From Candidatus Omnitrophota bacterium (GTDB lineage: Bacteria > Omnitrophota > Omnitrophia > Omnitrophales > Aquincolibacteriaceae), in the NCBI GenBank assembly GCA_030698625.1, contig JAUYMS010000042.1, positions 92,150 through 156,149 on the forward strand: a DNA stretch of 64,000 nucleotides, written 5' to 3'. The notes beneath the pieces were generated by a model. That model saw only the letters and a list, made by a program, of their open reading frames with translations. It was not told the DNA's origin and searched no databases. Shown here piece by piece: positions 1-48,100 of the stretch (position 1 is the first letter of the stretch; each line of letters starts with the position of its first letter). A program made the position numbers and the translations under genes.

Positions 1-3000
1 CTTGCGCGCCGAGGTCTTGAGCATTTGCGCGGCGTTCCGGTCTCCCGATTCAAGTTCGAGAGTTTTCTTTTCTCCTTCGCCGTCCCTGTAGATGGCGCCC
101 TCCGGCTTCTGCAGGTAGTACCCGCCCATTAAGCGCACCTTACTCTGTCCCACGAAATAGCGCTTATCCGGTGTATCGTATTTCATTCTTAATTCGGAAC
201 GCGCTTGACGACTCGCGCCGTAGGCTTGCGGGTGCACGTCGGCAAAATCGGGGTATAGGTCGGTGCTTCGAGATACCAGAGTATGGTACCTCTCCATGGC
301 AAAAGCAAAATTACCCTCGCCGGAGCGCAGCAGATCGCCCGCACGAAATGGCGGCTCCCCCTCACTTTCGAGAAACTCTGCCGCATCCAGTATCAGCTCC
401 TCGAGCTCAAGCGTAAGCATTTCTACCTCAAGGTGAAATGCTTCACGCTCTCCTACGGGAAAATAAATGCCGGGAACCGGCGTGCGGTTGTACACCGCAA
501 CGACTCGATCTCTAAAATCGGCGTTTCGCTCGGAAAAATTCTCAACCTGCTGATGGGCACGGACGTTCAAGGCCGCGGTCGCATCGCCCGGCCGCGAAAC
601 AAGGCGGCTGTCGTAAAGGGCCATGATCTCTTCCCGCACGCGCTTGCGCTCCTTGTTCAGCTCGGCCATTCTGCGCCCCACGCGTCTTTGGAGGATGGTA
701 CCGGTCAAATACCACAAACCGGATAAACCGAGTCCTACAGCACTCATAACCACATCGATCCAAACCGGCCAGGCGATCATCTGCAAGGCCCTTCCCAATA
801 AGAAAATAGCGGGAAGCGATACCGCCGCAAGGAGGTGCCAAATACTCGGTTCCTCAAGACGCCGCACGCCAAATGAGGCCAACGTATAATGCTCGCGGGC
901 TTTGGCCATTTCCGCGGTCAGCCTTTGCGCCTTTTCGCGCAATGCACGGGCCGTCCCTTTCGCAGCGGCCTCGTCTACTCTAAGCTCCGAACGCTTCTTC
1001 TGATAAAAACGAAAGTCCATCTCGTGATAGGCGCGTGCCTCTGCGAGGAGTTCACGCACGAGAGCTTCCTGCTTTTGGCTCCAGCTAACGTTGCGATAAC
1101 TCTGAGCAGATCGATCAAGCGATGTCTCTCTGGCCGTCAAGGTCTGCAACATATCCGTCAGGGTCTTATAAGCAAATGCGGAGAATCGCCCGTAGCCCTG
1201 CCGCCGCCGTTGGTCTTCGTTGCGCAAGCGGTCAATGGCGGCCTGACGCAAAGCCGAAAAATTCAATCGGCTCAGCTCACGTATATACCGATTGGTTTGG
1301 CCGGCAACTTGATCAACGAAGGCATCCCTATCAAAATCGGGTTCGTTTCTGCGCCGGCGCTCCTCCACTTTTTCCAGCCGGCCGCCGACCACTTCCCTGG
1401 TCTTATCCTTTTCAAAATCAAAACGATCTCCGTAACCGGCCCGTAATTCTGACCGTGCGGGGAGGACTTCACTGACTCCGTCATCAATCTCTTGCTCGAT
1501 CCGCTGCAGATCATAACCGACAGCGCTCGCCGCATTGGCCCTTTTAAACATTTGTACAATGCCCCGGATGATGGAGACGCGCATAGTGCCGTAGACCACA
1601 TCATGGGCCGCTTCGATATTCTCGGGGATGATCCCCATGTGCGTCGGCTCCGGGGCCACAAGGGTTCCCATGTCCACGAGTTTCAGTTCCCCGGAAGGTG
1701 TGATACGAAAACTATCCGGCTTGAAATGCTTCACCCGCCGGCCGAATATACCCACCGTCAACTTCTGTCGGCCGAGTTCCAGCACAAACTCCGCGAATCG
1801 GCGCGAAAAGTTTTTCGCATCGAAGTCTGCCGGTTTCGCCAAAGCCTCTGAGACCGGCTGGCCGTCCACGTATTCCATGAGCATTGCCGCTGCCCGAACA
1901 CGTTCATTTCCAAACATTGCATTAAAACGGTAAAGCCGCTCGATCTTGGGCACATACCCCGTAGACTCCATGGCAGCTCCTAAGACCTGATCTTTTTCCA
2001 GTAAGTGCACAATATTTTCAGTCAAAATACGGTTGATCTCTTCCGCTTCACGGAAGCCGTAGCCGGTCCGAACCTTGTACCCGATGGGGACTTTCAAAGC
2101 CTTTTCCCCGCCCGCGGCATCTTTCACCAGATAGACCTCACCTCGCTCGCTTTCTCCCAACACACGCACAAACTCAAGCTCGGCATCAATCGCCTTAACA
2201 ATGGCTCCGGCATCAGCCGCTTCGATCGGCCATGCATAGTTAGACGCCACTTCACCGGCCCGTAGTTCGGAGCGGTGAGGAGCGTCAACGCTTGGCACGG
2301 GCACGGTCATGCGTTCGCGCGCACTTGTTTCGCCTAGTGCTTCCGGATACAAGACAACGTCGACAACGGTTTCGCCGGTCGCGGTTTGCCGCGGACGCAC
2401 GCGGTAGATCGGATCTCCGGCAGCGGTACTCGCATGGGCGCTCGCATTGAGCTGCGCAGCAAGACCCGGGCGGTCAGGCAGTAGGGGCGCGATCACTGAG
2501 AGAATCGTTCCGACTTCGGCCCCATAGAGCCAGCGAAGGTTGTCGAACAATTGCTTGCGCTGCGCCAGGCCGTGCGCCAAGGAAGCGGTTTCCATCGTGG
2601 ATCTTGTGAAGATATTAGACGCGTCCTGCAGAACGGCAGCGACATAGGCTTTCTGGCCGTCTTCGGCTTCGCCGAGCCCGATTTTCGGAGAAACCACTGC
2701 ATAGCTATAACCGCTGTCTTCGAAAAATTCACGGAAAGGCTCCTGGTGGAAACCTCCGGTGATGACGACCGCCTTTTCGAGTTCGAGTTCTTGCATGCGC
2801 CGGGCAATGTTCTCAGTCATCTCGGCATCACGCTTTTTCACCAGGCGATAAAACTCCATCGCTTTTTTGAAAAGCGCGTCGAGCCTGTCGAGGCTGTCAA
2901 AACGTGCTTCGCGAACACGCTTATCCGCGTTCAGCGAAAGAAAACGAGCGGCAACGGCTGAAGGCCGGATCGCGCTCCCCTCGCCGCCGTTCAGCATGAT

Positions 3001-4194
3001 CGCATCATATTCTGCCGGGGTAAGCTCCAGGCGAAACAGCTTCTGCAGCAACCTGTAATCTGTGAGCAGCCGGACTAAGGACTTTTCTTCAGGCGAGACG
3101 GCAAGGGTGTCGGATAGCCGGCCGATGAGCCGCTCGGTCTCTGCCATCAACCGGTCTGCCTTGAGTTCGCTTTGGAGCAGGAGATGCCCCACAAAGAATT
3201 TCACATTCGGATAGGCCTCATAATTAAAGTTGGGCGGAAGAAGCGCGACCAAACTCTCGATGAGATTGCCCGTCTGGGGCTCGGGCAAATGGTGCTGGGT
3301 CAACCCCATGCTCAGAAGGCTCTCGACTTCGTCAACAACAGGACGGCGGTCGGCACGAATCACAAGCCTCCTGACATCCGCCAAAAAGCGGTCCCGTTCT
3401 ACGGGGAACTCTGTCATGTCGATCTTGGATTCGAATTCCCGCAATTTAAAGATCCTCAAAAGCTGGGGCCAGTCGATCTGCAGTGCCGGGTCCGTTAAGT
3501 CTAGGCGAAGCTGCTCTTTCGCCTGCGCTCTCAGAAGCTCCAGCCAGTCGGGAAGGGACAGAAATCCCTCATCATGAGCTGCCAGCTGTTTGAGAAACTG
3601 GCGAAGTTGTACATTTAAAAAATGTCCCGACAGATACCGGATCTGACTGTCCATGCCCTGCACGAACTCCGAACTTTCCTCCCTTGCTTTAAGTACGGTT
3701 CGAAAGGCGTCACGGTTGGCAAGATAAGTCGAAAGGGTTTCAATGCCGTAACCTTCCGCTTGGGGTTCGTCGATAAGAAAGAGTTCCGGCGCCTTTATAA
3801 GCGCCTGTTTGGCTAAATGATCCGCAATAGACTTTGTCAGGGCCGAATCGTCGGGGAAGATTCTCAAGATCTCGGGCTCAAGCTTGAAGGCCGTTCCCTC
3901 CACAAAAACAGTATTGATGTCATAGGCCGTTTTGAGATGATGAAGAATCGTTTGGATATTCTTCTGCGCTTCGTAGTTACCGTGAGCCGTTTGAACGTGA
4001 ATCAGTGTGGGGCCGTTGCCGAGATGGAACCTGTCGACTGTTCCGAGCTCCGCGGGGATTTCGAGTTGAAAGTTCGGGGAAACACGGACTTCGGCTTGCG
4101 CGTAAACCATAGCGGCGGCATAACTTTGCGGCGCTGCAACAAAGTTACTAGCGAAGAAAATAATTGCCGTCAGCCATGTTGTGATTTTTAACAT
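1..4194 (-). CDS. Large secreted/membrane multidomain protein, 3' end beyond window start (>=1398 aa visible). It has an N-terminal signal peptide, a protein-kinase-like domain, two TM helices and four RSELR motifs.
   Basis: Manual translation of the minus strand from ATG at 4194 (RBS GAGGGG about 10 nt upstream) is stop-free down to nt 1. 4194 is divisible by 3, so the frame exactly fills the window edge. It is absent from the ORF track only because it has no in-window stop. The N-terminus MLKITTWLTAIIFFASNFVAAPQSYAAA looks like a signal peptide. Confidence 0.7.
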   Translation of the reverse strand, partial: MLKITTWLTAIIFFASNFVAAPQSYAAAMVYAQAEVRVSPNFQLEIPAELGTVDRFHLGNGPTLIHVQTAHGNYEAQKNIQTILHHLKTAYDINTVFVEGTAFKLEPEILRIFPDDSALTKSIADHLAKQALIKAPELFLIDEPQAEGYGIETLSTYLANRDAFRTVLKAREESSEFVQGMDSQIRYLSGHFLNVQLRQFLKQLAAHDEGFLSLPDWLELLRAQAKEQLRLDLTDPALQIDWPQLLRIFKLREFESKIDMTEFPVERDRFLADVRRLVIRADRRPVVDEVESLLSMGLTQHHLPEPQTGNLIESLVALLPPNFNYEAYPNVKFFVGHLLLQSELKADRLMAETERLIGRLSDTLAVSPEEKSLVRLLTDYRLLQKLFRLELTPAEYDAIMLNGGEGSAIRPSAVAARFLSLNADKRVREARFDSLDRLDALFKKAMEFYRLVKKRDAEMTENIARRMQELELEKAVVITGGFHQEPFREFFEDSGYSYAVVSPKIGLGEAEDGQKAYVAAVLQDASNIFTRSTMETASLAHGLAQRKQLFDNLRWLYGAEVGTILSVIAPLLPDRPGLAAQLNASAHASTAAGDPIYRVRPRQTATGETVVDVVLYPEALGETSARERMTVPVPSVDAPHRSELRAGEVASNYAWPIEAADAGAIVKAIDAELEFVRVLGESERGEVYLVKDAAGGEKALKVPIGYKVRTGYGFREAEEINRILTENIVHLLEKDQVLGAAMESTGYVPKIERLYRFNAMFGNERVRAAAMLMEYVDGQPVSEALAKPADFDAKNFSRRFAEFVLELGRQKLTVGIFGRRVKHFKPDSFRITPSGELKLVDMGTLVAPEPTHMGIIPENIEAAHDVVYGTMRVSIIRGIVQMFKRANAASAVGYDLQRIEQEIDDGVSEVLPARSELRAGYGDRFDFEKDKTREVVGGRLEKVEERRRRNEPDFDRDAFVDQVAGQTNRYIRELSRLNFSALRQAAIDRLRNEDQRRRQGYGRFSAFAYKTLTDMLQTLTARETSLDRSAQSYRNVSWSQKQEALVRELLAEARAYHEMDFRFYQKKRSELRVDEAAAKGTARALREKAQRLTAEMAKAREHYTLASFGVRRLEEPSIWHLLAAVSLPAIFLLGRALQMIAWPVWIDVVMSAVGLGLSGLWYLTGTILQRRVGRRMAELNKERKRVREEIMALYDSRLVSRPGDATAALNVRAHQQVENFSERNADFRDRVVAVYNRTPVPGIYFPVGEREAFHLEVEMLTLELEELILDAAEFLESEGEPPFRAGDLLRSGEGNFAFAMERYHTLVSRSTDLYPDFADVHPQAYGASRQARSELRMKYDTPDKRYFVGQSKVRLMGGYYLQKPEGAIYRDGEGEKKTLELESGDRNAAQMLKTSARK
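187..201 (-). other. RSELR motif codons (QARSELRMK) in the truncated large protein.
   Basis: Reverse complement cgt tcc gaa tta aga = R S E L R, in frame with the 4194 ORF. Confidence 0.8.
979..993 (-). other. RSELR motif codons (KKRSELRVD).
   Basis: Reverse complement cgt tcg gag ctt aga, in frame. Confidence 0.8.
1441..1455 (-). other. RSELR motif codons (PARSELRAG), C-terminal boundary of the kinase-like domain.
   Basis: Reverse complement cgg tca gaa tta cgg, in frame. Confidence 0.8.
1456..2259 (-). other. Eukaryotic-like protein-kinase-like domain (about 270 aa) bracketed exactly by two RSELR motifs.
   Basis: Gly-rich loop LGESERGEVYLV, putative VAIK-like lysine in EKALKV, HFKPDSF (degenerate HRDLKPxN) and LVDMG (DFG-like), seen in the translation. 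The catalytic motifs are degenerate, so it may be a pseudokinase. Confidence 0.45.
2260..2274 (-). other. RSELR motif codons (PHRSELRAG), N-terminal boundary of the kinase-like domain.
   Basis: Reverse complement cgc tcc gaa cta cgg, in frame. The plus-strand 17-mer ccgtagttcggagcggt is shared with giant-gene motif copy 8 at 37847. Confidence 0.8.
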
Positions 4195-4366
4195 CGTAGA
4201 AAATTCCCCTCTGTTCCGCCTGAACGGAACCCTGTGAAATTTGCCTAAATGGACGTAAATAAAGGAGTTGGTAAAGACTACCCGGTCGATCGGGCAGCTT
4301 CAAATCGGGGGAGTTTTTGATCTAGCATGGGCTAGCATTCAAAAACAATGAAGAGAGATGGCTGTC

Positions 4367-9664: not shown

Positions 9665-11510
9665 ACAAAAGCTCGCTGTGGGAAAAGAAGTTAAATCGGC
9701 AACAGCCATTACGGTCAGATTTGCGGGTGATTCCGGCGACGGAATGCAGCTGACCGGAGACCAATTCACCGACACCGCGGCTCTCATGGGCAATGACTTT
9801 GCCACATTGCCGGACTATCCCGCTGAGATCCGTGCTCCGGTCGGAACCCTGCCCGGCGTCAGCAGTTTTCAAATACAATTTTCGGATTCCATCATCTTTA
9901 CGCCCGGTGACTTAGCCGATGTGCTCGTGGCCATGAATCCGGCAGCCCTTCGGGTTAACCTCACGAACATCAAAAAGGACGGCATGATCATCGTCAATGA
10001 ATCGGTGTTCACGGAAGCCAGCCTGGTAAAGGCCGGGTGGAAGGCGAATCCGCTTGATGATGACACCCTAAAGGATTATCGGGTCTTGCGCGTTCCCCTT
10101 TCGGTGCTGACGAAAAATGCGCTGAAGGATCTTCCCCTTAAACTTACCGAGGTAGAGCGCTGCAAGAACTTCTTCGCCCTCGGTATTATGTTCTGGCTCT
10201 ATGACCGAGATAGGGATCACACCGTCGAGTGGGTGCGAAAAAAATTCGCAAAACGTCCTGAGATCGTAGAGGCAAACATCACCGCCTTGAAAGCCGGATA
10301 CACCTTCGCCGATGTCAGCGAAGCGATGCCGATTCAGTTTCATATCAAACGAGCCAAACTCGAAGCGGGCGTTTACCGCAAAATTACCGGCAATGAGGCT
10401 ACCGCGATCGGTCTTGTCGCAGCGTGTAATCTGGCAAACAAGACCCTCTTTTACGGTTCTTATCCCATTACTCCGGCAAGCAACATTTTGCATGAGCTTG
10501 CGCGCCATAAAAACTTCGGCGTAAAAACCTTTCAGGCCGAAGATGAGATCGCGGCCTGCGGCGCCGCAGTCGGGGCGTCTTTCGGCGGTGAGGTCGGTAT
10601 GACGGGTACGAGCGGTCCCGGATTGTGTCTTAAGTCGGAAATGATAAACCTGGCAATCATGGCAGAACTCCCGCTTGTGGTGGTTAACGTACAACGCGGG
10701 GGTCCGAGTACGGGCATGCCCACAAAAACGGAACAGGCGGATCTCCTGCAGGTTCTTTTTGGCCGTAACGGAGAGTCCCCCATTGCCGTGGTGGCGCCGA
10801 TAACACCGGCCGACTGTTTTCTGATGGCCATTGAAGCTGTCCGCATCGCCATAGAATACATGACCCCCGTGGTCCTGCTTTCGGATGGCAATATTGCCAA
10901 CGCCGCGGAACCTTGGCAATTACCCGAGATTGAAGCGCTTCCCAAGATCAAGGTCACTCATCCGACAAATTCCGACGGCCCTTTTATGCCGTACACGCGC
11001 GACCCTAAAACACTCGCCCGTCCGTGGGCAAAACCCGGAACACCCGGCCTAGAACATCGTATCGGAGGCCTGGCCAAAGCGGACATTACGGGGAATGTGA
11101 GTTACGATCCGGAGAATAATCAGAAGATGATCAATCTCCGCGCCAAGAAGATCCGGCGCATTGCTGACAGTATTCCTGAGTTAACCGTAGACGGCCCGGC
11201 AAAGGGAAAGCTGCTTGTCCTTGGCTGGGGAGGAACTTACGGGCCCCTCTACCAAGCACGTACGGAATTGGAAAGTCAGGGCATCAAAATTTCCCATGCG
11301 CAACTGAAGTACCTGAACCCTTTCCCGAAAAACCTCGGGAGCATTCTCGGGAATTTCGAAAAGGTCTTGATCCCAGAACTAAATATGGGACAATTATTGA
11401 TGTTGATACGCTACCATTTCCCCGGAGTTAATGCCGTCGGCATGCACAAGGTTCAGGGCCATCCGTTCAAAGTGACAGAAGTCGTGGAACATATCCGGAG
11501 CGTCTTATGA
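9657..11510 (+). CDS. korA: 2-oxoacid:ferredoxin oxidoreductase alpha subunit (fused gamma+alpha type).
   Basis: 617 aa. The N-terminal gamma-like region and pyruvate-flavodoxin/ferredoxin oxidoreductase core (GSYPITPASN, GPGLCLKSE) are followed by a beta-subunit gene with a 4-nt overlap. Confidence 0.8.
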   Translation: MDKQKLAVGKEVKSATAITVRFAGDSGDGMQLTGDQFTDTAALMGNDFATLPDYPAEIRAPVGTLPGVSSFQIQFSDSIIFTPGDLADVLVAMNPAALRVNLTNIKKDGMIIVNESVFTEASLVKAGWKANPLDDDTLKDYRVLRVPLSVLTKNALKDLPLKLTEVERCKNFFALGIMFWLYDRDRDHTVEWVRKKFAKRPEIVEANITALKAGYTFADVSEAMPIQFHIKRAKLEAGVYRKITGNEATAIGLVAACNLANKTLFYGSYPITPASNILHELARHKNFGVKTFQAEDEIAACGAAVGASFGGEVGMTGTSGPGLCLKSEMINLAIMAELPLVVVNVQRGGPSTGMPTKTEQADLLQVLFGRNGESPIAVVAPITPADCFLMAIEAVRIAIEYMTPVVLLSDGNIANAAEPWQLPEIEALPKIKVTHPTNSDGPFMPYTRDPKTLARPWAKPGTPGLEHRIGGLAKADITGNVSYDPENNQKMINLRAKKIRRIADSIPELTVDGPAKGKLLVLGWGGTYGPLYQARTELESQGIKISHAQLKYLNPFPKNLGSILGNFEKVLIPELNMGQLLMLIRYHFPGVNAVGMHKVQGHPFKVTEVVEHIRSVL

Positions 11511-12541
11511 GTTCGATAGACACAAAAAAAATTCCCTTCACAAAGAATGACTTCGTTTCCGGCCAAGAGATCCGCTGGTGTCCAGGATGCGGTGATTATG
11601 CCATTTTGGCCACGATGCAGCGCACCCTCGCGAAATTTGATATCAAGCGCGAAAATCACGTCTTTATCTCTGGCATCGGCTGCTCAAGCCGTTTTCCGTA
11701 TTACATGAACACCTACGGTTTCCATACCGTGCACGGCCGGGCTCCGACGATTGCGAGCGGTCTTCGTTGCGTCAACCCCGATCTTTCCATCTGGGTCATT
11801 ACCGGAGACGGTGACGGCCTGAGCATCGGCGGCAATCACTTACTGCATTGCATGCGCCGGAACATGAATCTTAATATCTTGCTCGTCAACAATAGGACGT
11901 ATGGACTTACCAAGGGGCAGTATTCCCCCACTTCGGAGATGGGTAAGGTGACGAAATCCAGCCCGATGGGATCCATCGACCACCCTATCAACGCTCTCTG
12001 CGTCGCGCTGGCCTCAGAAGCGACCTTTGTCGCACGGACTCTGGACAACGACCCTATTCATATGAGTGAGACTTTCAAACGAGCTATGGATCACAAAGGC
12101 ACCTCGTTTGTCGAGGTTTACCAGAACTGCAACATCTTTAATGACAAGGCATTCGTGCCGGTTACCGGCCGCGACAACCGAGACGACCGAATGATCTACC
12201 TTGAAGACGGGAAACCGCTCATCTACGGCAAAGAAAAAAACCGCGGCATTCGCTTGGTTGGCATGAAACCGGAGATCGTCGACATTGATAACCAGGAACT
12301 CGACCAGCTTCCGGTGATACTCATGAGCCACAATGAAAAAACAGCGGATCCAAGCTACGCCTATATGCTAACTCAGATGGATCACCCCGAAATGCCGGTG
12401 CCCTTCGGTGTTTTTCGGGCCCTTGAAAGACCGACTTACGATGATTTACTAAACGGTCAGGTCAAAACCGCCATAAAAAAACTAGGCCCCGGTGACCTAA
12501 AAAAACTCATTCACGGCGATAACACATGGACGGTGAATTGA
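11507..12541 (+). CDS. korB: 2-oxoacid:ferredoxin oxidoreductase beta subunit (TPP-binding).
   Basis: 344 aa. CPGCGDY Cys cluster and TPP-binding GDGDG motif (ITGDGDGLSIGGNH). Confidence 0.8.
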   Translation: MSSIDTKKIPFTKNDFVSGQEIRWCPGCGDYAILATMQRTLAKFDIKRENHVFISGIGCSSRFPYYMNTYGFHTVHGRAPTIASGLRCVNPDLSIWVITGDGDGLSIGGNHLLHCMRRNMNLNILLVNNRTYGLTKGQYSPTSEMGKVTKSSPMGSIDHPINALCVALASEATFVARTLDNDPIHMSETFKRAMDHKGTSFVEVYQNCNIFNDKAFVPVTGRDNRDDRMIYLEDGKPLIYGKEKNRGIRLVGMKPEIVDIDNQELDQLPVILMSHNEKTADPSYAYMLTQMDHPEMPVPFGVFRALERPTYDDLLNGQVKTAIKKLGPGDLKKLIHGDNTWTVN

Positions 12542-17067: not shown

Positions 17068-18066
17068 CTATGCCGAAACCTTCAGGTACTCGTCAATCTC
17101 TTGAATCAACTTCTTGCTATCACTATATATCAGGACATTATTCCTACCCAGGGACTTTACGGCATCAATACCCAGATGCTCCGGACATATCGCACCAAAA
17201 AGGATCTTCTTAGTGGCTTCGTCGGCGTAAAGGTCTCGATACAGTCCCGCGATATCCAGCACGGTTGTATCTTCCCAAAACTGGCCTAAGATCAATTCGG
17301 GTTTCTTTTCCTTAGCCAGCTTCAATACCCCGCTCTCGTTGACACCGTTGATGACCGAGAAACCCAATGACTCCAGATGCTTTTTGGCACTTTCAAGTAT
17401 AAAATCTTCAGCGGCAACAACCACGGCTAACTTTCCCCGAGCGGCGGAGTTAGCTTCCTGCGCTCCGGACGGCTGCGCCGTTTCCTCAACGGGTAAAGGA
17501 GGGGCGTCATTACCGAGTGCCTCTGCCACTTTGGTTAAAAGGACGTTAGATGAAACCGCCTTATCCAGAAAGGCAAAGACGGCCCAATCCGGAAAATAAT
17601 CCTTAAAACTCTTTCGGGCTGACATGACAATGACGGGTATCTTATCCATCCCTTCGACCTCAACCTTGAGTTTTGCCAACAGCTCGTAGCCTGTCATTTC
17701 CGGCATAAGCACATCCATAAGGATGAGATCCGGCTTTTCCGCTTTGACCCTATCAAACCCTTCGCGACCGTTGTCGGCGCGCGTAACCTCATAGCCGTGT
17801 TTCCTGAGATCAAACTCCATCAAATGAGCATAACTAGCGTCGTCTTCGATGAGCAGGATTTTTTGATGGTTGCCTGCCGGCACAGACTCCGCTTGGCCGC
17901 CCTCGGATGCGACAGCCTTCTGTGCCCCTGTTGACGCGGCGTCCTTAGGTTCTTCTTCGCCGCCGGCCTGGGCGTTGCACCGCGAGCAGAACATCTCAGC
18001 GGGAGATCGCGGCTCAAACGACGAGCCGCACGTCATGCAATTCTTGGAAATTTTTTTGTTCGCCAC
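17068..18066 (-). CDS. Response regulator with N-terminal C4 zinc ribbon, REC domain and a second receiver-like domain.
   Basis: 332 aa. CMTCGS...CSRC, then KILLIEDD...LILMDVLMPEMTGY (phospho-acceptor Asp), then a second CheY-like domain. Confidence 0.8.
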   Translation of the reverse strand: MANKKISKNCMTCGSSFEPRSPAEMFCSRCNAQAGGEEEPKDAASTGAQKAVASEGGQAESVPAGNHQKILLIEDDASYAHLMEFDLRKHGYEVTRADNGREGFDRVKAEKPDLILMDVLMPEMTGYELLAKLKVEVEGMDKIPVIVMSARKSFKDYFPDWAVFAFLDKAVSSNVLLTKVAEALGNDAPPLPVEETAQPSGAQEANSAARGKLAVVVAAEDFILESAKKHLESLGFSVINGVNESGVLKLAKEKKPELILGQFWEDTTVLDIAGLYRDLYADEATKKILFGAICPEHLGIDAVKSLGRNNVLIYSDSKKLIQEIDEYLKVSA

Positions 18067-18069
18067 GGA

Positions 18070-19023
18070 TTAGGCCTTTCGCTGCATATGCTCGTCGATG
18101 AGCTTGACTAAATCATCGCTTTGTTGATAGATGAGCACCTTTGATGGGTTAACAACTTTGACCGCATCAAGCCCCAAGTGATCCGCGGCAAAGGTCGCGA
18201 AGCGTATGCTTTTCATCTCCGGATCCGTATTAAATGCCTGATAGATTTTACCGACATCCAGGGTAGTCGTATCTTCCCAATACTGTGCCAGAACCATGTC
18301 GGGTCTGATTTCCTTCGCCTTCTGAATAGTTCCTGCTTCGTTAACTCCGTTGAGAACCCTATACCCGTTCCCCTCAAGGTGCTGCTTCACTTTTTCGAGT
18401 AGGAACTCCTCTACGGCCGTGACGATAACCGTCTTTCCCGAACTGCGCTGGGTCGGTTGCGGGGCACTGGCAGCAGGCGCAGCGTCAGAAGTCCCGATGG
18501 CCTCTACAACCCTTTCCATCATGATTTCCGGCTCAAAGGGTTTCGCCAAAAACGTCAGGATCGCCCAACTGGGGAAAAATTCCTTCATGCTGTGCTTTGC
18601 CGACATTACAATCACCGGGATTTCGCCGATATCCGCATCATCCCTGAGATGCTCAACCAGCTGATACCCCGTCATCTCGGGCATTAAGACATCCGTTATA
18701 ATTAGGTTCGGTTTCTCCGTCCGAGCCACCGCTAGACCTTCCCGACCATTACTTGCCGTAACAACCGCATAGTTCATTTTTGAAAGACGCGACTTTAGAA
18801 GCAAAACAATGGCCGGTTCATCGTCAACAATGAGGATCTTCTTTGAGCCGACAATGGCGGGCTCTTCAACGGCTGCGGGCTTAGCAGGCTCAGGCTCTTT
18901 TTCCTCTTTGGCCTTATCGGGTTCTCCGCCGCAACGCTGGCAAAAAATCTCGTCGCCGGAGGGGGTAAATGACGTCCCGCATATCGTACACGACTTACTT
19001 CTGGGTGCGCGCTTTGTCATCAA
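18070..19023 (-). CDS. Response regulator, tandem paralog of 17068..18066 (zinc ribbon + REC + receiver-like).
   Basis: 317 aa with the same architecture and conserved DVLMPEMTGY. Confidence 0.8.
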   Translation of the reverse strand: MMTKRAPRSKSCTICGTSFTPSGDEIFCQRCGGEPDKAKEEKEPEPAKPAAVEEPAIVGSKKILIVDDEPAIVLLLKSRLSKMNYAVVTASNGREGLAVARTEKPNLIITDVLMPEMTGYQLVEHLRDDADIGEIPVIVMSAKHSMKEFFPSWAILTFLAKPFEPEIMMERVVEAIGTSDAAPAASAPQPTQRSSGKTVIVTAVEEFLLEKVKQHLEGNGYRVLNGVNEAGTIQKAKEIRPDMVLAQYWEDTTTLDVGKIYQAFNTDPEMKSIRFATFAADHLGLDAVKVVNPSKVLIYQQSDDLVKLIDEHMQRKA

Positions 19024-19104
19024 CTCCTCCAGCGGGGCTCAGGAATCCTCAAAACATGTGCTCTGGGCAGAGTTTACACATTCTCTGCTCAAAATGCAAT
19101 TTAC

Positions 19105-19612
19105 GAATTAGCGGTGGGTGAATTCCTGTAGCTGCGACCGTCGCAGCAAGAGGTATTCTCCGCCCGGAGAAATTCTTCGCAGAGGACTCCGAATACCTCA
19201 CGGCGCGAGGTGAAAGCGAGGTTGTCCGAAACGCTACGGATTTCTCGGCCTATCCTGCCCATCAAAGTCTTGCCGAGAACCGTTGACTTTGATACCCGCT
19301 GATACGGCCCGAGAAATCCTCCGCATGTTTCTGACAACCTCGCTTTCACCCAGCTTTGGCCTGCCTCAGCGACAGGGGTCCCTTTTGGGGGCCGTTGCGG
19401 TAAGAGGTATTCGGAGCCCAATAAGAGAAATTCTGAAGACTGAGGACGCAGCTAACTTACTAGGGGAGACCGTCGATAGGAGCTTTAGCTCCGTTATCGA
19501 CGGCGGGGTCCCCGTAAGTCAGTGGAGTCCTCCGCGAAGAATTTCTCCGGGCGGAGAATACCTCTTGCCGCTGCGGCCGCAACTACAGGGATGCACCCAT
19601 TAGCGGTCTCGA
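19105..19612. repeat. About 510-bp nested inverted-repeat (foldback/MITE-like) element in the 717-bp gap between two response-regulator genes.
   Basis: Outer arms 19125..19190 and 19524..19589 are about 90% reverse-complementary over 66 bp. Inner arms 19207..19250 and 19306..19350 and a local hairpin at 19458..19500 are also present. The mirrored 106-aa ORFs on both strands are an artefact of the symmetry. Confidence 0.75.
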
Positions 19613-19740
19613 ATCGCAAGCTCAAAAGCCTGGGGAAATCCCCCGTCGAAACCAGCGGGGGTTTGCTTCGGCGAGAGACGTTGAAGCTTTTCGAGTTGTG
19701 GGCAAATCGCAATGATCAGAAGGCGTACTAAACTAAGTCG

Positions 19741-20562
19741 TTAAAGAAACCGCTCCAAGAACACGGCTGACTTTTCGAACAACTCTTCCTCATTTTTGTA
19801 GGATAGGATCTGGGAAAGGGCAAGGTCCTGCGCCGCGCGCTCAAGATTCTTTTCCTCACAGAGAACATAAAAGGGTATCGGCTGAACGGTCGGCATGCCC
19901 ATGAGCCGGTTGCGCAGGTTTAATGCGGCGGCCCAGCCCTCGGATGCCGGATCACATTGAGCCAAAACACATGCCGGGTGCGTCCTGATAGCTTGGCCGA
20001 AGGCTTCCTTCTCGTCTAGGGTGAATAGCGGAATAAATTGATGCGCAATGCGGCTTGACTTCATCTTATCCCGGTGATCGTCGCTCCAGCCGAAAAAAAC
20101 AACGTGGTATCGCTGATTCTCGCTCGAACAAGCTTCTGCCGGCTTTGTCGCAGCTTCAGGGCCCGCAGAAACCGGTAACTTTTCCGCATCAATTTCACCC
20201 AGAAACTCACGCACTTTTAAGAGGATATCATCCAGAGAAAAGGGCTTTGGGATAAACGCATACTTCTTCCAGTCCGTAAAGAAATCTTTCATTTTGGGAC
20301 GGCCCGACATAATAATGATGGGAATGTTAAGGACATGGTCGCCCTGCCCCTTCAATTTTTCAAAGACCTGATAGCCCGTCATTTCCGGCATCAACACATC
20401 CATGATAACCAAGTCCGGAATCTCGCGGATGATCGTCTCATAGGCTTCCGCACCGTTGCTCGCCGTAAAGACTTCGTACTGATTTTGCGTCAACCAGTCC
20501 TCGAGAACTGTCTTGATATCCTGCTCGTCATCAACAATAAGTATTTTTTTGCTCATCCCCAT
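19741..20562 (-). CDS. Response regulator (REC domain plus C-terminal domain of unknown function).
   Basis: 273 aa. KILIVDDE...LVIMDVLMPEMTGY. Third paralog, lacking the zinc ribbon. Confidence 0.75.
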   Translation of the reverse strand: MGMSKKILIVDDEQDIKTVLEDWLTQNQYEVFTASNGAEAYETIIREIPDLVIMDVLMPEMTGYQVFEKLKGQGDHVLNIPIIIMSGRPKMKDFFTDWKKYAFIPKPFSLDDILLKVREFLGEIDAEKLPVSAGPEAATKPAEACSSENQRYHVVFFGWSDDHRDKMKSSRIAHQFIPLFTLDEKEAFGQAIRTHPACVLAQCDPASEGWAAALNLRNRLMGMPTVQPIPFYVLCEEKNLERAAQDLALSQILSYKNEEELFEKSAVFLERFL

Positions 20563-20588: not shown

Positions 20589-20810
20589 CTACGCTGTGAC
20601 TTCGACCACTTTTTCTTTTGAGCGATGCCCCGATACGAGCGTCAGGCAGGACTTTGGAAGATCGAGATGTCCACTGAGGGCTTCAAGAACGGCCTTGTTA
20701 GCGCGGCCTTCGTTGGGGGATGCTTTCACCCACACTCGGAAGTGCGTCGGATCAACCTCAACAACTCGAACTTGCTTCGCGTTCGGTTTCGTCTGTACAA
20801 ATAATTTCAC
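20589..20810 (-). CDS. DUF167 (YggU-like) small protein.
   Basis: 73 aa. GRANKAVLEALSGHLDLPKSCLTLVSGHRSKEKVV matches the YggU family pattern. Its stop overlaps the HK start. Confidence 0.55.
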   Translation of the reverse strand: MKLFVQTKPNAKQVRVVEVDPTHFRVWVKASPNEGRANKAVLEALSGHLDLPKSCLTLVSGHRSKEKVVEVTA

Positions 20811-22252
20811 GCGACAAGAGTTTGAGTTAACTGGGGAATCACGAATCGAAAAGAACTGCCTTTACCCGGCTCACTTTCCACCCAGATACGGCCGCCGTGG
20901 CGTTCCACAATCTCTTTAGCGATCGCCAAGCCAAGCCCTGTCCCCTGTTGATTCTCAAGCGGGACACTGCTCCCCATGGCAAACTTTTCGAAGATCCGCT
21001 TCTGATCTTTTTCGGAAATGCCGGCGCCGTTGTCCATGACCGCAATCTGCACAAACTCCGTTCTCGTGCCTTGCGCGAGTGCCGGGTCCTTATAGAACAG
21101 TGTGCTTAGCGTCACCGCACCGCCCTTAGGCGTAAATTTAAAGGCGTTTCCGACCAGATTGACGAGCACTTGTTGGAGACGCTCGCGATCAGCTTCGACC
21201 ATGAGGGTTTCATCGTGAATATCCACACTCAAGCGAATCCCTTTGTCCTTTGCCCAGATTTTAAAGCTGGTGACAGTGTCATGGATAAGCTCCACTAACC
21301 GAAAGGGCTCTGTATGGAGCCGCACGGCCCCCGCCTCAAGCCTGGAAAAATCGAGGATGCTGTTGACTAGCTTTTCCAAGCGCACGGCATTACGCGTCGC
21401 GATTGAAAGACAACTACGTTGGTCCTCACTTAAAGCTGTGAGTTCGCCGTCCAAAGCTGCTAAGGACTTCTGAATGCAAATCAGCGGTGCCCGCAGTTCA
21501 TGCGTCACACTGGCAAGAAACTCGGTCTTATAGTCCTCAAGCTCCTTTTTCCCGGTAACTTCCGGGACAACCGAGAACATCCCCATGGTCTGGCCTGATT
21601 CAGTTTCAATGACGGCACTGCTCTCTCTGATGAGTTTTTCGGCCTTAGGATCATTGCTTAGGAGATCAATCGCGGCTGATTCCGATGCTTCCATCCGGTG
21701 CGCAAAGGATATGACCTGGCCCTCCTTCTGCGTAGCACCGATGGGCTTACCCAGCACCTCTTCCTTCTTAACCCCCAGCATTTTCTCGGCCGTTGCGTTC
21801 AGCATCAGGGTTTCCCCTTTCGCATTGACAACAATCACGCCCTCGGAAAGAGAGCGAACAACGGACTCCGTTTGCTTCTTTTCGCGGCCAAGAACCCGGA
21901 AATCCGCCGAGACCTCCTCAACTTTTTGCTCCAACGTCTTAAGGGTTTTATCTTTAGAGCTGATGACATCTTTGTAGGCACCGGCAAGTCTCTTTTCGAT
22001 CTGGTCCGTATTGCGGCTAATCTCGTTGCTCACAAAGCGCCCGACGGCTTCGCTTGCCTTGCCGAGGTTGATTCCGCTGATTTTCAGTTTACTGAGCTCG
22101 CTATGGACGGCCTTTAGGATCTTGGCAGTTTCAGGATCACTTGAGGTAGGGGTAAGCTTCCGGGGATCGGCAGTTCGCTGTGTCAGCAGAAACAGAATGA
22201 CCAAGCAAATCCCGATGACAGACGCCAATATAACGAGTGCCATAGTTCCCAT
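20807..22252 (-). CDS. Sensor histidine kinase (TM anchor, coiled coil, PAS, HisKA, HATPase).
   Basis: 481 aa. H-box SVTHELRAPL, N/G boxes NAFKFT and GTGLGLAIAKEIVERHGG. Confidence 0.85.
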   Translation of the reverse strand: MGTMALVILASVIGICLVILFLLTQRTADPRKLTPTSSDPETAKILKAVHSELSKLKISGINLGKASEAVGRFVSNEISRNTDQIEKRLAGAYKDVISSKDKTLKTLEQKVEEVSADFRVLGREKKQTESVVRSLSEGVIVVNAKGETLMLNATAEKMLGVKKEEVLGKPIGATQKEGQVISFAHRMEASESAAIDLLSNDPKAEKLIRESSAVIETESGQTMGMFSVVPEVTGKKELEDYKTEFLASVTHELRAPLICIQKSLAALDGELTALSEDQRSCLSIATRNAVRLEKLVNSILDFSRLEAGAVRLHTEPFRLVELIHDTVTSFKIWAKDKGIRLSVDIHDETLMVEADRERLQQVLVNLVGNAFKFTPKGGAVTLSTLFYKDPALAQGTRTEFVQIAVMDNGAGISEKDQKRIFEKFAMGSSVPLENQQGTGLGLAIAKEIVERHGGRIWVESEPGKGSSFRFVIPQLTQTLVA

Positions 22253-28751: not shown

Positions 28752-30185
28752 TTAATTCTGACCTGCGATTTGTTGCGGGACGATAAAATGGAAACGGGCT
28801 CCTTCGCCTTCCCGGCTATCGGCCCACAGGCACCCGCCGTGGCGTTCTACAATCTCTTTGCAAATGGAGAGGCCGAGTCCGGTGCCCTTGTGATGCTCAA
28901 GAGGGGCTTGGCTGCCTACACGAAACTGCTGAAAAATGACGGGGAGATCCTTTTCCTTGATACCGATGCCCGAATCCTCAACGCTGATCTGGACAAAGCT
29001 GCCGTCGCTCGCCACGGCTCTGGGTTTCGACCGGCAAACCGTAGCCCGGAGATGAATCTTGCCTCCGTTGGGAGTGAATTTCAGCGCGTTCGACACCAGG
29101 TTCATCAGGACCTCATCCAACCGCTCACGGTCGCCCATAATCAGCGAAACACTCGGGTCCACCTCTCTGGCAACCGCTATCCCCTTGTCTTTTGCCCAAA
29201 CACCGAGCGATCCCATGACATCATCAAAGAGCATGTCCATGCTCACCGGTTCGCAATGAATCGCGACGTGATTCGACTTTAGCTTCGAGTAGTCCAGGAT
29301 CTGATTGATCATCATCTCTAAACGTTTAATATTCCGGTGCGCGATACCGATATATTTTTTTTGCTCATCGGAGGCGGACATCAACTCTTCGCAAATGACA
29401 TACAGCGACTTATAGACGCAGTAAAGCGGTGAGCGAAGCTCATGCGAAATGTTGGCCATGAATTTCATCTGGTAATGCTCTATTTCCTTCTGTGTCATGG
29501 TGTGCGGCAGCGCCGACAACATACCGCGCGTATCGCCCTTTTCTGTTTCGATAACGGCACTACGTTCTCGCACCATCCTTACGGCATCTTCATCCTGACT
29601 GGAGACCTCAGGGTTGTCGCCTGTCTGAGAGGCATCATCCACGAATGAAATAACGGCGTTCTCACTTTTGCTCTGCCTGATCGGTTTTCCGATAATCTCA
29701 CGCCGTTTTAATCCGAGTAGTTTTTCTGCGGCATCGTTAACGGCAACGGCTTCGCCTTTCTCGTTGACGACGATCCTTCCTTCAGACATGGAGCGCACTA
29801 CCTTTTCGGTTTTCTTCTTTTCTTTGCCAAGGTGAACATAGTCTTCTTGCACGGTCTCATACTTCTTCTCTAATTTCTTGATCGCCTGTTCGCTCTGAGT
29901 GATGAGACTGCGGTAGGTCTTGGCCATTTCCTGTTTGACGACGAAGGTCTGATTGCGGACCTCTTCCATGACAATCTTCGTAATCGTATTGTTCAATTGC
30001 TGGGATTTGGATGAAGGAATGGCGAGCTTCTTTAGCTCGGACTGGACGGAATTAAGATAGGCCCCCGAACCCTTTGCCTTTTGGGAGTCCTTCTGAACAC
30101 GAATACCACCGCGGGCTATCTGGACAACCATCACCAGACAGATGAGCGCGACAAACAAGAACAGTATTAAACCAAATCCTCCCAT
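28752..30185 (-). CDS. Sensor histidine kinase, paralog of 20807..22252 (TM, coiled coil, PAS, HisKA, HATPase).
   Basis: 477 aa. The PAS segment VVRSMSEGRIVVNEKGEAV is nearly identical in pattern to the other HK. H-box ISHELRSPL and G-box GTGLGLSICKEIVERHGG. Confidence 0.85.
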   Translation of the reverse strand: MGGFGLILFLFVALICLVMVVQIARGGIRVQKDSQKAKGSGAYLNSVQSELKKLAIPSSKSQQLNNTITKIVMEEVRNQTFVVKQEMAKTYRSLITQSEQAIKKLEKKYETVQEDYVHLGKEKKKTEKVVRSMSEGRIVVNEKGEAVAVNDAAEKLLGLKRREIIGKPIRQSKSENAVISFVDDASQTGDNPEVSSQDEDAVRMVRERSAVIETEKGDTRGMLSALPHTMTQKEIEHYQMKFMANISHELRSPLYCVYKSLYVICEELMSASDEQKKYIGIAHRNIKRLEMMINQILDYSKLKSNHVAIHCEPVSMDMLFDDVMGSLGVWAKDKGIAVAREVDPSVSLIMGDRERLDEVLMNLVSNALKFTPNGGKIHLRATVCRSKPRAVASDGSFVQISVEDSGIGIKEKDLPVIFQQFRVGSQAPLEHHKGTGLGLSICKEIVERHGGCLWADSREGEGARFHFIVPQQIAGQN

Positions 30186-45100: not shown

Positions 45101-48100
45101 GCTCATCGCCGAAAAGCTCTCCTGAGAGAGCAACGACACGGCCAGGAGGCCCTCGAAGTCTTCCGGCGTCTGGGGATAGTCTTTTTTCTGCCGCAGTTGT
45201 GCCATAAGGCTCGTGGAAATCCGGCGCCAATCCTTTTCGTATTCCAGCCGGGGCATGTTGACAAAGGCAATGCCCCATTGGTTGACCACGCGGATGGCCT
45301 CGACAAGCATAGCCTCCGTTTCCCCCTGCTCCGACAGGTGAGCCATGCGGCTCAGCGTCTTCTGCTTAACGCCTTTCAAAACTGAGCTGAGCCGCGAGCG
45401 CTCTTCAAGACCGATTGTCCAAGATTCTCCGATTTGGGCCCGATTTCTTCTTGCGATGGCGTCCTCGAGCCAAGCCATCAACTCGTCGACTTGGTTTAAG
45501 ACCCCCGTTTTTTCGGTCGACAGCCTGCGATTCAGCGTCGATACAAACTCGCGGCGAAAGGGCTGCCTGAAGAGATCAAGCAAAATAACCTTCTTCATTT
45601 CCGGCATGTAAAACTGGCGCCATTTGTCGTTTTTCCTAGCGGAGAATCGAATGGACCAATGGTTTTTAGCCTCCAGATACCCATAAAGAAACTCTGAGAG
45701 TTCTCTCATTCTTTTTTCCCGGTCCGTCGTCGGATCTAAGCTCCCATACCAATCAAGCAACGCCTGCCGCAGATCATCGGCACTCATGGCGTTGACCTCT
45801 TCCATGATCTTCTCAAAGCGGCTGGAAAATTCGGTCGTTGCCTCTTGCGCAAACAGTCCCCAATCAAACGTCACACCGCCCTGACCGGGACGGCGCCTTG
45901 AGCGTTCACGGAGCTGCGCCATTCTTTCACCCGCATCACCGGCAAGCCGCGTCACATTAGCGCCCAGAGCAAGAATCATGTCCGCTCTCTCCATGACCGT
46001 AAGCTCTCTGCGGTCCAACTGCGAGACCATGTGCTGCGTCGTCGCATTCATGAGAATGCGCATATTGGAGCGAAGCTTTTGCACTTCCTTGTCGTCCACT
46101 TCGTAGTTGATTTGGGCCGACATAATTTTGCGGACATCAAGACTTATCAAAATGCGCTCCATGAATCGTTCGGCATCAATTAAGTTCACACTCATTTCGG
46201 TCATGAAAGTCTTAATCTCATTTGTATCTACGGCGTCAAACGGGATCTCGTCCTGGAACATAACCATCCGCTCAATCTTCGGGGTGTCCGACCACCGTGT
46301 CATGACTTCGACATCGCCGATTTGATAAGCGGCCTTCCCGTGAATCAGCTGCGTCCGCACATAAACACCCATCAGGCGGGTATCCCACGAAATAAGGAAC
46401 TCCCGGGCATCGCCGAAGCGCTGCTCATAGGCCTCCGCGGCCTTCTGGCGCAGCTTTGCGAGAGCCGGGAATGCCTCCTTGAACTCTTCGTATTTTTTTC
46501 CGTCCATGGCGGAACGCATCGCCTGCTCGCTTAAGCCAAGCAATTCCTCCGGAGCGAGCGGCAACCCTATGCGTTCAAAGATCCGGGCTTCCATCATCCT
46601 CGCAACGCGCTCCGGAGTAAAATATTCGACGAATTCTTCGCGGGTTACTTCGTAGACCTCGTCATCGCCGGGAAACAGGAACCCTTCCGAGCGATGCAGG
46701 ACAATGTCATGCAGCATCAACAGCAGCACGTTCTCACCCTCCTCATCAAATCCCAGGTTCTGGTTGCGCAGAAATGTCAGCACCGCCTCTGTCCATTGAT
46801 CACGGGACAAGTGCCGCACCAAATGTCCAAACTGGTTCCAGAACCGCGCCGGCTCAGCCTTCACAAGATCTTCCACAAATCCTTCGGGAATTTCGCTGGG
46901 GATCGTATCGTCGATCCGGAGGGCATCCCAATCAATGGGATGAACATCATGGCTCAATTTGTCTAGATGAATGAAGCGGACGAACTCGCGCAGGTTGGAG
47001 TAGCGCATCTCCATGGAACCGTGCACCGGATCAAGACCGACAGCTCCTGTCGGCATAGCCTCGTCACCTTTTGCTTGCTCTTCTGCACTTTTCTGTGCAA
47101 CGCGCGCACTCCATTTTCGTTTGAACGTAAGCGCCCCGATCGGATTCACTCCCCTCTGATTGAGCTCCCACAACATCGCCAAGTCGGCTTCAAATTCATT
47201 AAGCCTCCAGATACCGAAGCCATAAATGTCAAAGGGGTCGAGATCCCCGCGTTTAAACCTATGCGACCTCTCGATGTGCCTGAGTTCATGCATGAGAACA
47301 GCCAACACTTCCTCCTCGGTATCAAGAATCTTTAACATGCCCGTCGTGATATAGATCTGACCGGCAGCGGAGGCAAAGGCGTTCTCCTCTTTGTCATCGA
47401 TAACGGCAACACGTGCCTCGTGCGTACGGATAAGCCGCTGCAACAACCCGTTGAGGAATACGCTCGTTGGATGGTTTTCCATGAGAATATTCTTCTCAAA
47501 AAGGGTCCGTTGGACGGCGATCGACTGCGCCTCAAAAAAGCGGTCACGGAAAGTCACGGCACGAAGTTCCGAGCGCTGTCCGGTTTCGACGCGCCGTAGC
47601 TCTTCGAGTTGTTCGCGTAGCCCTTCCTCTAAGCGGCGGAAGCGGTGCGGCCCCCGTGCTCCGAGCAGTGCCAGCGCCCGGCGATTGTCGAAAACCGGCG
47701 GATTCATCACCTTTGAGGGCGGGTCTACTGATAGGCGGCTCGTTTCTTCTTCTGAGAGTACGCGCAACATCTTCACCGCCCGCAACACATCTGCCGGGGC
47801 ATAGTTGTAACCGCTGGCAATATTAATGATGTCGTGTTCGCCTCGAATAATTTTTGGGAGCTGAGAAATTTCTTCCAGAACCGCCACTGCATCCGACAAA
47901 TGCACGTAATCTCTTGTATACCCGGCAAAACGCCCTTGATACCCCTTAAAAATCGGGCGAATCGCTTCCGGAATAGGATGGTTCGAAGACGTATCTTTCT
48001 TGCCGAAGAAGCTGGTGGGTCTCACAATAACAACGTTGTCACGCTTTTCGAGCAGCCGCTCACCTATCATCTTTGCGAGTTTGTAAGGATAAACTTCAGC

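Follow-up and report, generated by a model that had tools for sequence, protein, structure and literature searches.

The long spacer between two paralogous response-regulator genes holds a palindromic element of 483 bp (19116-19598) that is best explained as a MITE-type non-autonomous DNA transposon inserted into a formerly 225-bp intergenic spacer, a reading to which we assign a probability of about 60%. All positions refer to the window, by which we mean the whole 64-kb stretch of Omnitrophota DNA that was analysed. The interpretation follows from terminal inverted repeats (TIRs) that end at a short direct duplication, a size below 600 bp and a lack of coding capacity. MITEs are defined as non-autonomous transposons with TIRs, and in bacteria they range from 50 to 600 bp, as summarised in PMC6382973; the 483 bp of the element (483-484 bp, depending on how the duplication is read) lie within this range. 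Out of seven tests for MITEs, four (size, TIRs, duplication and non-coding sequence) gave the result expected of such an element, and those for multiple copies and AT-richness did not. With a G+C content of 56.7% against 53.0% for the window, the element does not show the AT-rich composition that is usual, if not obligatory, in MITEs. We regard it as an orphan element of an ordinary kind and an unnamed family, with no sequence relationship to any described element searched. A MITE-like insertion had been among the candidates of the first-pass annotation; its expectation of a target-site duplication is borne out by the perfect 9-bp repeat ATTAGCGGT, and its expectation of further copies is not, none having been found in the window or in the collections searched.

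We propose that a transposase encoded elsewhere would bind the two ends of the element, that the target would be cut in a staggered manner about 9 bp apart, and that repair of the gaps would duplicate the target sequence. The threefold occurrence of the arm module described below, together with a 16-bp palindrome, would make a plausible multi-site transposase-binding region.

Anatomy of the element and its putative insertion site

The outer inverted repeat was recovered by a repeat search at 19115-19190 and 19524-19599, with 76 nt per arm, 89% complementarity and 333 nt between the arms, and it is the sole long local inverted repeat of such size across the window. The first-pass annotation had slightly understated it: the 66-nt arms described there are present and match at 60 of 66 positions, and the true arms run 10 nt further out. 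The termini GGGTG..CACCC are identical, the outermost six bases of both arms agree, and the terminal sequence of the element can be given as GGGTGNATNCCTGTAG. Even with three mismatches allowed, the terminal 21-mer pattern matches the window at the two ends of the element only. Coordinates of the individual features are collected in Table 1.

Table 1. Features of the palindromic element and of its immediate surroundings, with positions in the window.
Feature	Position	Strand	Remarks
Downstream response-regulator gene	18070..19023	-	Zinc ribbon, receiver and unannotated C-terminal domain
Left direct-repeat copy ATTAGCGGT, putative target-site duplication	19107..19115		Perfect 9 bp
Left terminal inverted repeat	19116..19190		Terminus GGGTGAATTCCTGTAG...; 76-nt repeat match and arm alignment
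35-nt block GCAAGAGGTATTCTCCGCCCGGAGAAATTCTTCGC	19145..19179; right copy 19535-19569		Identical in both arms
Inner palindrome	19209..19350		Core 19209-19232 / 19327-19350, 24 nt, 96% complementary; MFE structures
Third, partial arm-module copy (..GGCCGTTGCGGTAAGAGGTATTC..GAGAAATTCT..GAGGAC)	19385..19446	+	Oriented as the left arm
Local hairpin	19440..19523		Centre of the second foldback; -37.9 kcal/mol
Right terminal inverted repeat	19524..19598		Terminus ...CTACAGGGATGCACCC; repeat search and arm alignment
Right direct-repeat copy ATTAGCGGT	19599..19607		Identical 9-mer to the left copy
G+C-rich hairpin CCCCCG..CGGGGG	19640..19661	Terminator-like on + only	32 nt outside the element, 80 nt past the stop of the upstream regulator
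Upstream paralogous response-regulator gene	19741..20562	-	Receiver domain (Pfam)

On both sides, the copies of the 9-bp direct repeat abut the outermost arm bases and start exactly where arm complementarity stops. Within the window, two 9-mers set a constant few hundred bases apart agree at a rate of about 1e-5 per position pair, and the repeat is not a chance match, even when a handful of alternative registers is granted. A 9-bp direct repeat at the arm ends is the signature of a target-site duplication. Because T 19115 and A 19599 are complementary, the duplication can be counted as 8 bp or as 9 bp. The two genes are separated by 717 bp (19024-19740), as previously noted, and excision of the element with one copy of the repeat leaves a spacer of 225 bp. 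The empty site is predicted to read ...ACGAATTAGCGGTCTCGAATCG..., with the junction TTTACGAATTAGCGGTCTCGAATCGCAAG. The insertion point lies 92 bp upstream of the start of the downstream response-regulator gene, and the sequence shows a GGAGGAG ribosome-binding site ahead of this gene.

The two arms differ at eight positions, six of them transitions, and these differences fall mostly within the outer 31 nt. Given eight mismatches in 76 positions, a mismatch-free run of at least 35 nt has a probability of about 0.046, so that the 35-nt core shared by the arms is mildly unexpected. Within this block lies a 16-bp palindrome, TTCTCCGNNCGGAGAA (19156-19171 and 19543-19558), which has no further exact copy in the window; its single other match, at 45631-45646, needs two mismatches.

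The interior of the element is itself folded back in several ways. The inner arms of 44 and 45 nt reported earlier were recovered, with 38 matches in 47 aligned columns, gaps included, and the local hairpin proved larger than first described, extending over 19440-19523. A motif search combined with a three-way alignment found the arm-module motif three times against zero expected; the third, partial copy at about 19385-19446 adds, like the 10-nt extension of the arms and the 9-bp direct repeat, to what had been seen before. By alignment of the element with its own reverse complement, this third copy folds onto the inner portion of the right arm to give a second foldback at 19390-19578. Besides the three copies of a roughly 55-nt module, the element therefore comprises an inner palindrome of unrelated sequence and a central hairpin.

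Nested and partial arm copies of this kind resemble serial template switches, and a local inverted duplication could have arisen in place by template switching or fold-back repair, with the short direct repeat as microhomology. A single copy in everything searched would fit such a one-off event. However, nothing else in the window resembles the arms, which argues that no local source was copied, and a 9-bp repeat that precisely brackets symmetric termini is what a staggered cut classically leaves behind. We consider an origin by local duplication unlikely.

Assembly, inversion and coding capacity

Palindromic chimeras can be produced by assemblers, and the source is a metagenome-assembled genome: the upstream regulator shows 100% identity to a protein encoded on a 253-kb contig of a Candidatus Omnitrophota MAG. 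An assembly palindrome is nevertheless unlikely because the arms differ at eight positions and lie deep in a 253-kb contig, and because the outer junctions were independently confirmed: the independent Logan assembly of SRR13727534 reproduced both flank-to-arm junctions with 100% identity to the window. Two Logan contigs (L001 and L008) stop at 19539 and 19175, which places both ends inside the 35-nt perfect repeat, one on either side. Such a break is expected, since a short-k de Bruijn assembler meets a perfect repeat at this point. The same two contigs also end at about 49110, in a giant gene, and at about 12131, in the open reading frame (ORF) 11507-12541.

The breaks within the core also bear on a different kind of explanation, an inverton, in which a trans-acting site-specific recombinase would flip the 333-bp segment between the arms and thereby toggle a promoter for the downstream regulators. 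With the Logan contigs broken at the core on both sides, mixed orientations fit as well as a perfect repeat does. The identity of the 35-nt core within otherwise diverged arms would be expected if recombination kept taking place there, and the arrangement as a whole, with intergenic inverted repeats around a short segment of a few hundred base pairs just upstream of a gene cluster, is shared with known invertons. These systems, such as fimS and the capsule switches of Bacteroides, have no target-site duplication, carry repeats of about 10-40 bp and hold a promoter inside the invertible segment. The element departs from them on all three points: an inversion leaves the 9-bp direct repeat beside the arms unexplained, at 76 nt the arms far exceed the usual length of inverton repeats, and no promoter was seen inside. 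A search of 18900-19900 on both strands found no sigma-70-like promoter, the consensus used being that of sigma-70, which may differ from the phylum's own, and Pfam detected neither a transposase nor a recombinase domain in the ORFs of at least 150 aa in the window. In addition, the interior is largely palindromic, so that a flip would alter little. An inverton is therefore a decidedly improbable reading. For a flipped 19191-19523 segment, the predicted junction would run from the left flank through the left arm as far as the core and continue with GGAGGACTCCACTGACTTAC.

The two mirror-image ORFs of 106 aa on opposite strands, at 19101..19421 (-) and 19283..19603 (+), are present as the first-pass annotation had described them, and open frames of 116 and 129 codons also exist within the element. 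Neither 106-aa ORF has a Pfam match. No homologue was found for the plus-strand ORF in a collection of 5.8 billion protein clusters, for 14 stop-free six-frame segments searched in concatenated form against the same collection, or for the 129-codon frame in an exhaustive phmmer search of 1.84 billion representatives. The mirror symmetry of the ORFs arises because the element is palindromic, and small-protein genes were rejected on the grounds of the absent homologues together with this mirroring. The element has no coding capacity, and the mirror-image ORFs should not be annotated as genes. Taken together, an assembly artefact or a genuine small gene is a very improbable source of the structure, and a MITE-like insertion would account both for the oddly long intergenic gap and for the short-k assembly breaks within it.

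Folding and possible effects at the RNA level

The long stem-loop predicted from the nested arms is strongly supported by folding of the whole element, which gave -301.6 kcal/mol (z -18.6) for the plus strand and -316.1 kcal/mol (z -20.4) for the minus strand, with none of 100 shuffled sequences as stable in either case. This stability does not discriminate between explanations, since good folding as RNA is common to all DNA palindromes. The folds contain 8 G-U pairs on the plus strand and 10 on the minus strand; of the six transition differences that separate the outer arms, two produce a wobble pair when the plus strand folds and four when the minus strand does. As the folds are about equally stable and G-U pairs about equally frequent, neither strand is favoured as an RNA.

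The first-pass annotation had also proposed a structured non-coding RNA or sRNA, or a large attenuator, and these candidates gained no support, with no Rfam match and no strand favoured. A scan of the entire window with Rfam 15 at gathering scores gave no match, and the best hit to the region at permissive E-values scored 14 bits where the gathering score is 35 (E 6.7). To our knowledge, known structured RNAs do not look like a near-perfect 76-bp duplex.

A native cis-acting RNA is another possible origin. The flanking genes share the minus-strand orientation, and a polycistronic minus-strand transcript could contain a very long hairpin that serves as an attenuator, a target of RNase III processing or a determinant of stability, so that expression of the upstream regulator would be separated from that of the two downstream ones. 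The sense strand is extremely stable (about -316 kcal/mol), with a lower energy than the plus strand and slightly more G-U pairs. On the other hand, this strand asymmetry is negligible, no Rfam family matches the region, no related sequence showing conservation or covariation was found, and the contigs of two distant homologues of the upstream regulator hold no comparable locus. The sequence has no U-tract after the stem on the minus strand, and the 9-bp direct repeat would again be unexplained. We judge a native RNA origin to be quite improbable. It is a rival to the MITE reading with regard to origin only, since an inserted MITE could have the same effects at the RNA level.

With a MITE inserted between two genes that are both read from the minus strand, RNA read through from the upstream gene would include, before the downstream regulators, a hairpin of about -316 kcal/mol, and no convincing minus-strand terminator precedes the element. 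By analogy with Correia and ERIC elements, such read-through RNA might be processed or destabilised at the hairpin. Should the element influence the expression of the tandem response regulators, this would be of no more than local interest.

Further copies, related systems and the surrounding genes

Sibling copies or a parent insertion sequence would be expected of a MITE, and the failure to find either is the main weakness of this reading. Searches of the element against the window with blastn and repeat-finding programs returned the element itself and no second copy. For wider scans we used the motif common to all three arm copies, AAGAGGTATTC-N6-14-GAGAAATTCT, with an exact 21-base match required. 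It was matched four times among GTDB species representatives, five times in JGI metagenomes and twice in IMG/VR. At the GTDB and JGI loci the similarity is confined to the motif and the named taxa are unrelated, and the two IMG/VR loci show no blastn similarity to the element at E ≤ 1. In IMG/VR, the terminal 21-mer pattern had no match and an inner-arm 18-mer had two chance matches. Plasmids and phages, searched with blastn in distant mode, gave no match to the element. The lack of further copies in the window and in collections without the source MAG is weak evidence, because the scans needed an exact motif and the source genome is in none of the collections.

Genes homologous to the upstream regulator were likewise followed up in search of an orthologous locus; beyond this genome, the closest show 34-35% identity and lie in unrelated contexts, and none revealed such a locus. 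Several other types of element were considered and rejected: REP/BIME, as the 64 kb contain no further occurrence of any of its units; a retron, as no reverse transcriptase is nearby; and attC, dif and oriT, which have the wrong size and shape and whose partner genes are absent.

Among described MITEs, MITEAba12 offers a useful comparison, with a length of 113 bp, mobilisation by ISAba12, a 9-bp target-site duplication, 16-nt inverted repeats and 90 known copies (PMC6382973). Both elements are intergenic and non-coding, have TIRs at their ends and a 9-bp target duplication beside them, and could affect neighbouring genes. In contrast to MITEAba12, the present element is four times longer and is not AT-rich, its inverted repeats measure 76 nt instead of 16 nt, and its termini begin with GGGTG... 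rather than GGCTTTGTTGC...; a known parent insertion sequence and 90 copies stand against one copy for which no parent was found.

Foldback, MITE-like repeats that are transcribed within operons and affect the processing or stability of mRNA are represented by Correia elements in Neisseria and by ERIC/IRU elements in Enterobacteria. They measure 100-160 bp and occur in tens to hundreds of copies, and Correia elements duplicate TA. The element shares with them, in principle, an intergenic palindrome that, in read-through mRNA, would form an extended hairpin with possible consequences for processing or stability. It differs in being longer and in the one copy found, and no sequence similarity was seen.

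A duplication of 8-9 bp and termini starting with GG are also found in Mutator/MULE transposons and the related prokaryotic IS256 family, and unusually long TIRs are typical of MULEs; unlike these, the element is without an identified transposase. Duplications of 8-10 bp are likewise made by IS1, the IS903 group of IS5, IS4, ISAs1 and ISLre2 (ISfinder tables). Since several insertion sequence families share duplications of 8-10 bp and the GGGTG termini do not discriminate between them, the element cannot be assigned to a family, and the 8-9-bp stagger would point to any of IS1, IS256, IS4, the IS903 group, ISAs1 or ISLre2. The terminus GGGTGNATNCCTGTAG, together with the 8-9-bp duplication length, provides a handle for seeking the mobilising transposase.

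If the MITE reading is true, the element is an example of small mobile DNA in Omnitrophota, a candidate phylum for which metagenomes are almost the sole source of knowledge. A MITE-like insertion would not surprise a specialist, and a full-text literature search returned no paper naming both MITEs and Omnitrophica. We hold a bolder version to be rather unlikely, in which the element would be the founder of an undescribed Omnitrophota transposon family, characterised by long ends in which a roughly 55-nt module carrying a palindromic site for protein binding occurs three times, or a MITE co-opted as an invertible or RNase III-cleaved switch that separates the expression of the paralogous response regulators.

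The element is not part of a mobile island. The Pfam-matched ORFs of at least 150 aa in the window are all housekeeping or regulatory (AcrB-type transporter, pyruvate:ferredoxin oxidoreductase, kinases, epimerases), and a few ORFs matched no Pfam family. No tRNA genes were detected across the 64 kb.

The genes on either side of the element were confirmed as paralogous regulators: both encode receiver domains, and their products are 37% identical over 199 aa (E 5e-34). A third paralogue lies directly next to the downstream gene, at 17068-18066, with 41% identity over 327 aa. The minus-strand region 17068-20562 thus comprises three tandem receiver-domain paralogues, all with a C-terminal domain that has no Pfam match, and the two downstream paralogues carry an N-terminal CxxC...CxxC motif resembling a zinc ribbon. 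This family of tandem regulators has few relatives, with seven matches at E<=1e-20 in a collection of 5.8 billion proteins. The G+C-rich hairpin between the element and the upstream regulator is followed on the plus strand, which is opposite to that of all neighbouring genes, by the tail TTTGCTT; the hairpin may terminate transcription in both directions or may mark the end of a short plus-strand transcript leaving the element.

Further features of the window lie outside the regulator cluster. Two paralogous PAS-HisKA-HATPase histidine kinase genes on the minus strand, at 20807-22252 and 28752-30185, are 6.5 kb apart and share stretches of about 76% DNA identity. At the left end of the window, a second very long minus-strand ORF (1-4299, at least 1,433 codons) runs off the edge, and the short plus-strand ORFs that overlie it have no Pfam matches and are probably not genes. 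A giant minus-strand ORF, 36140-64000, comprises at least 9,283 codons and is uninterrupted up to the right-hand edge of the window, beyond which the gene continues. Its Pfam matches form a mosaic of glycosyltransferases, acyltransferase, cytidylyltransferase, epimerase, M48 peptidase, ABC1 kinase, LOG/lysine-decarboxylase-like, FHA and HEAT domains. Giant genes have been reported for Omnitrophota, and this ORF fits that pattern.
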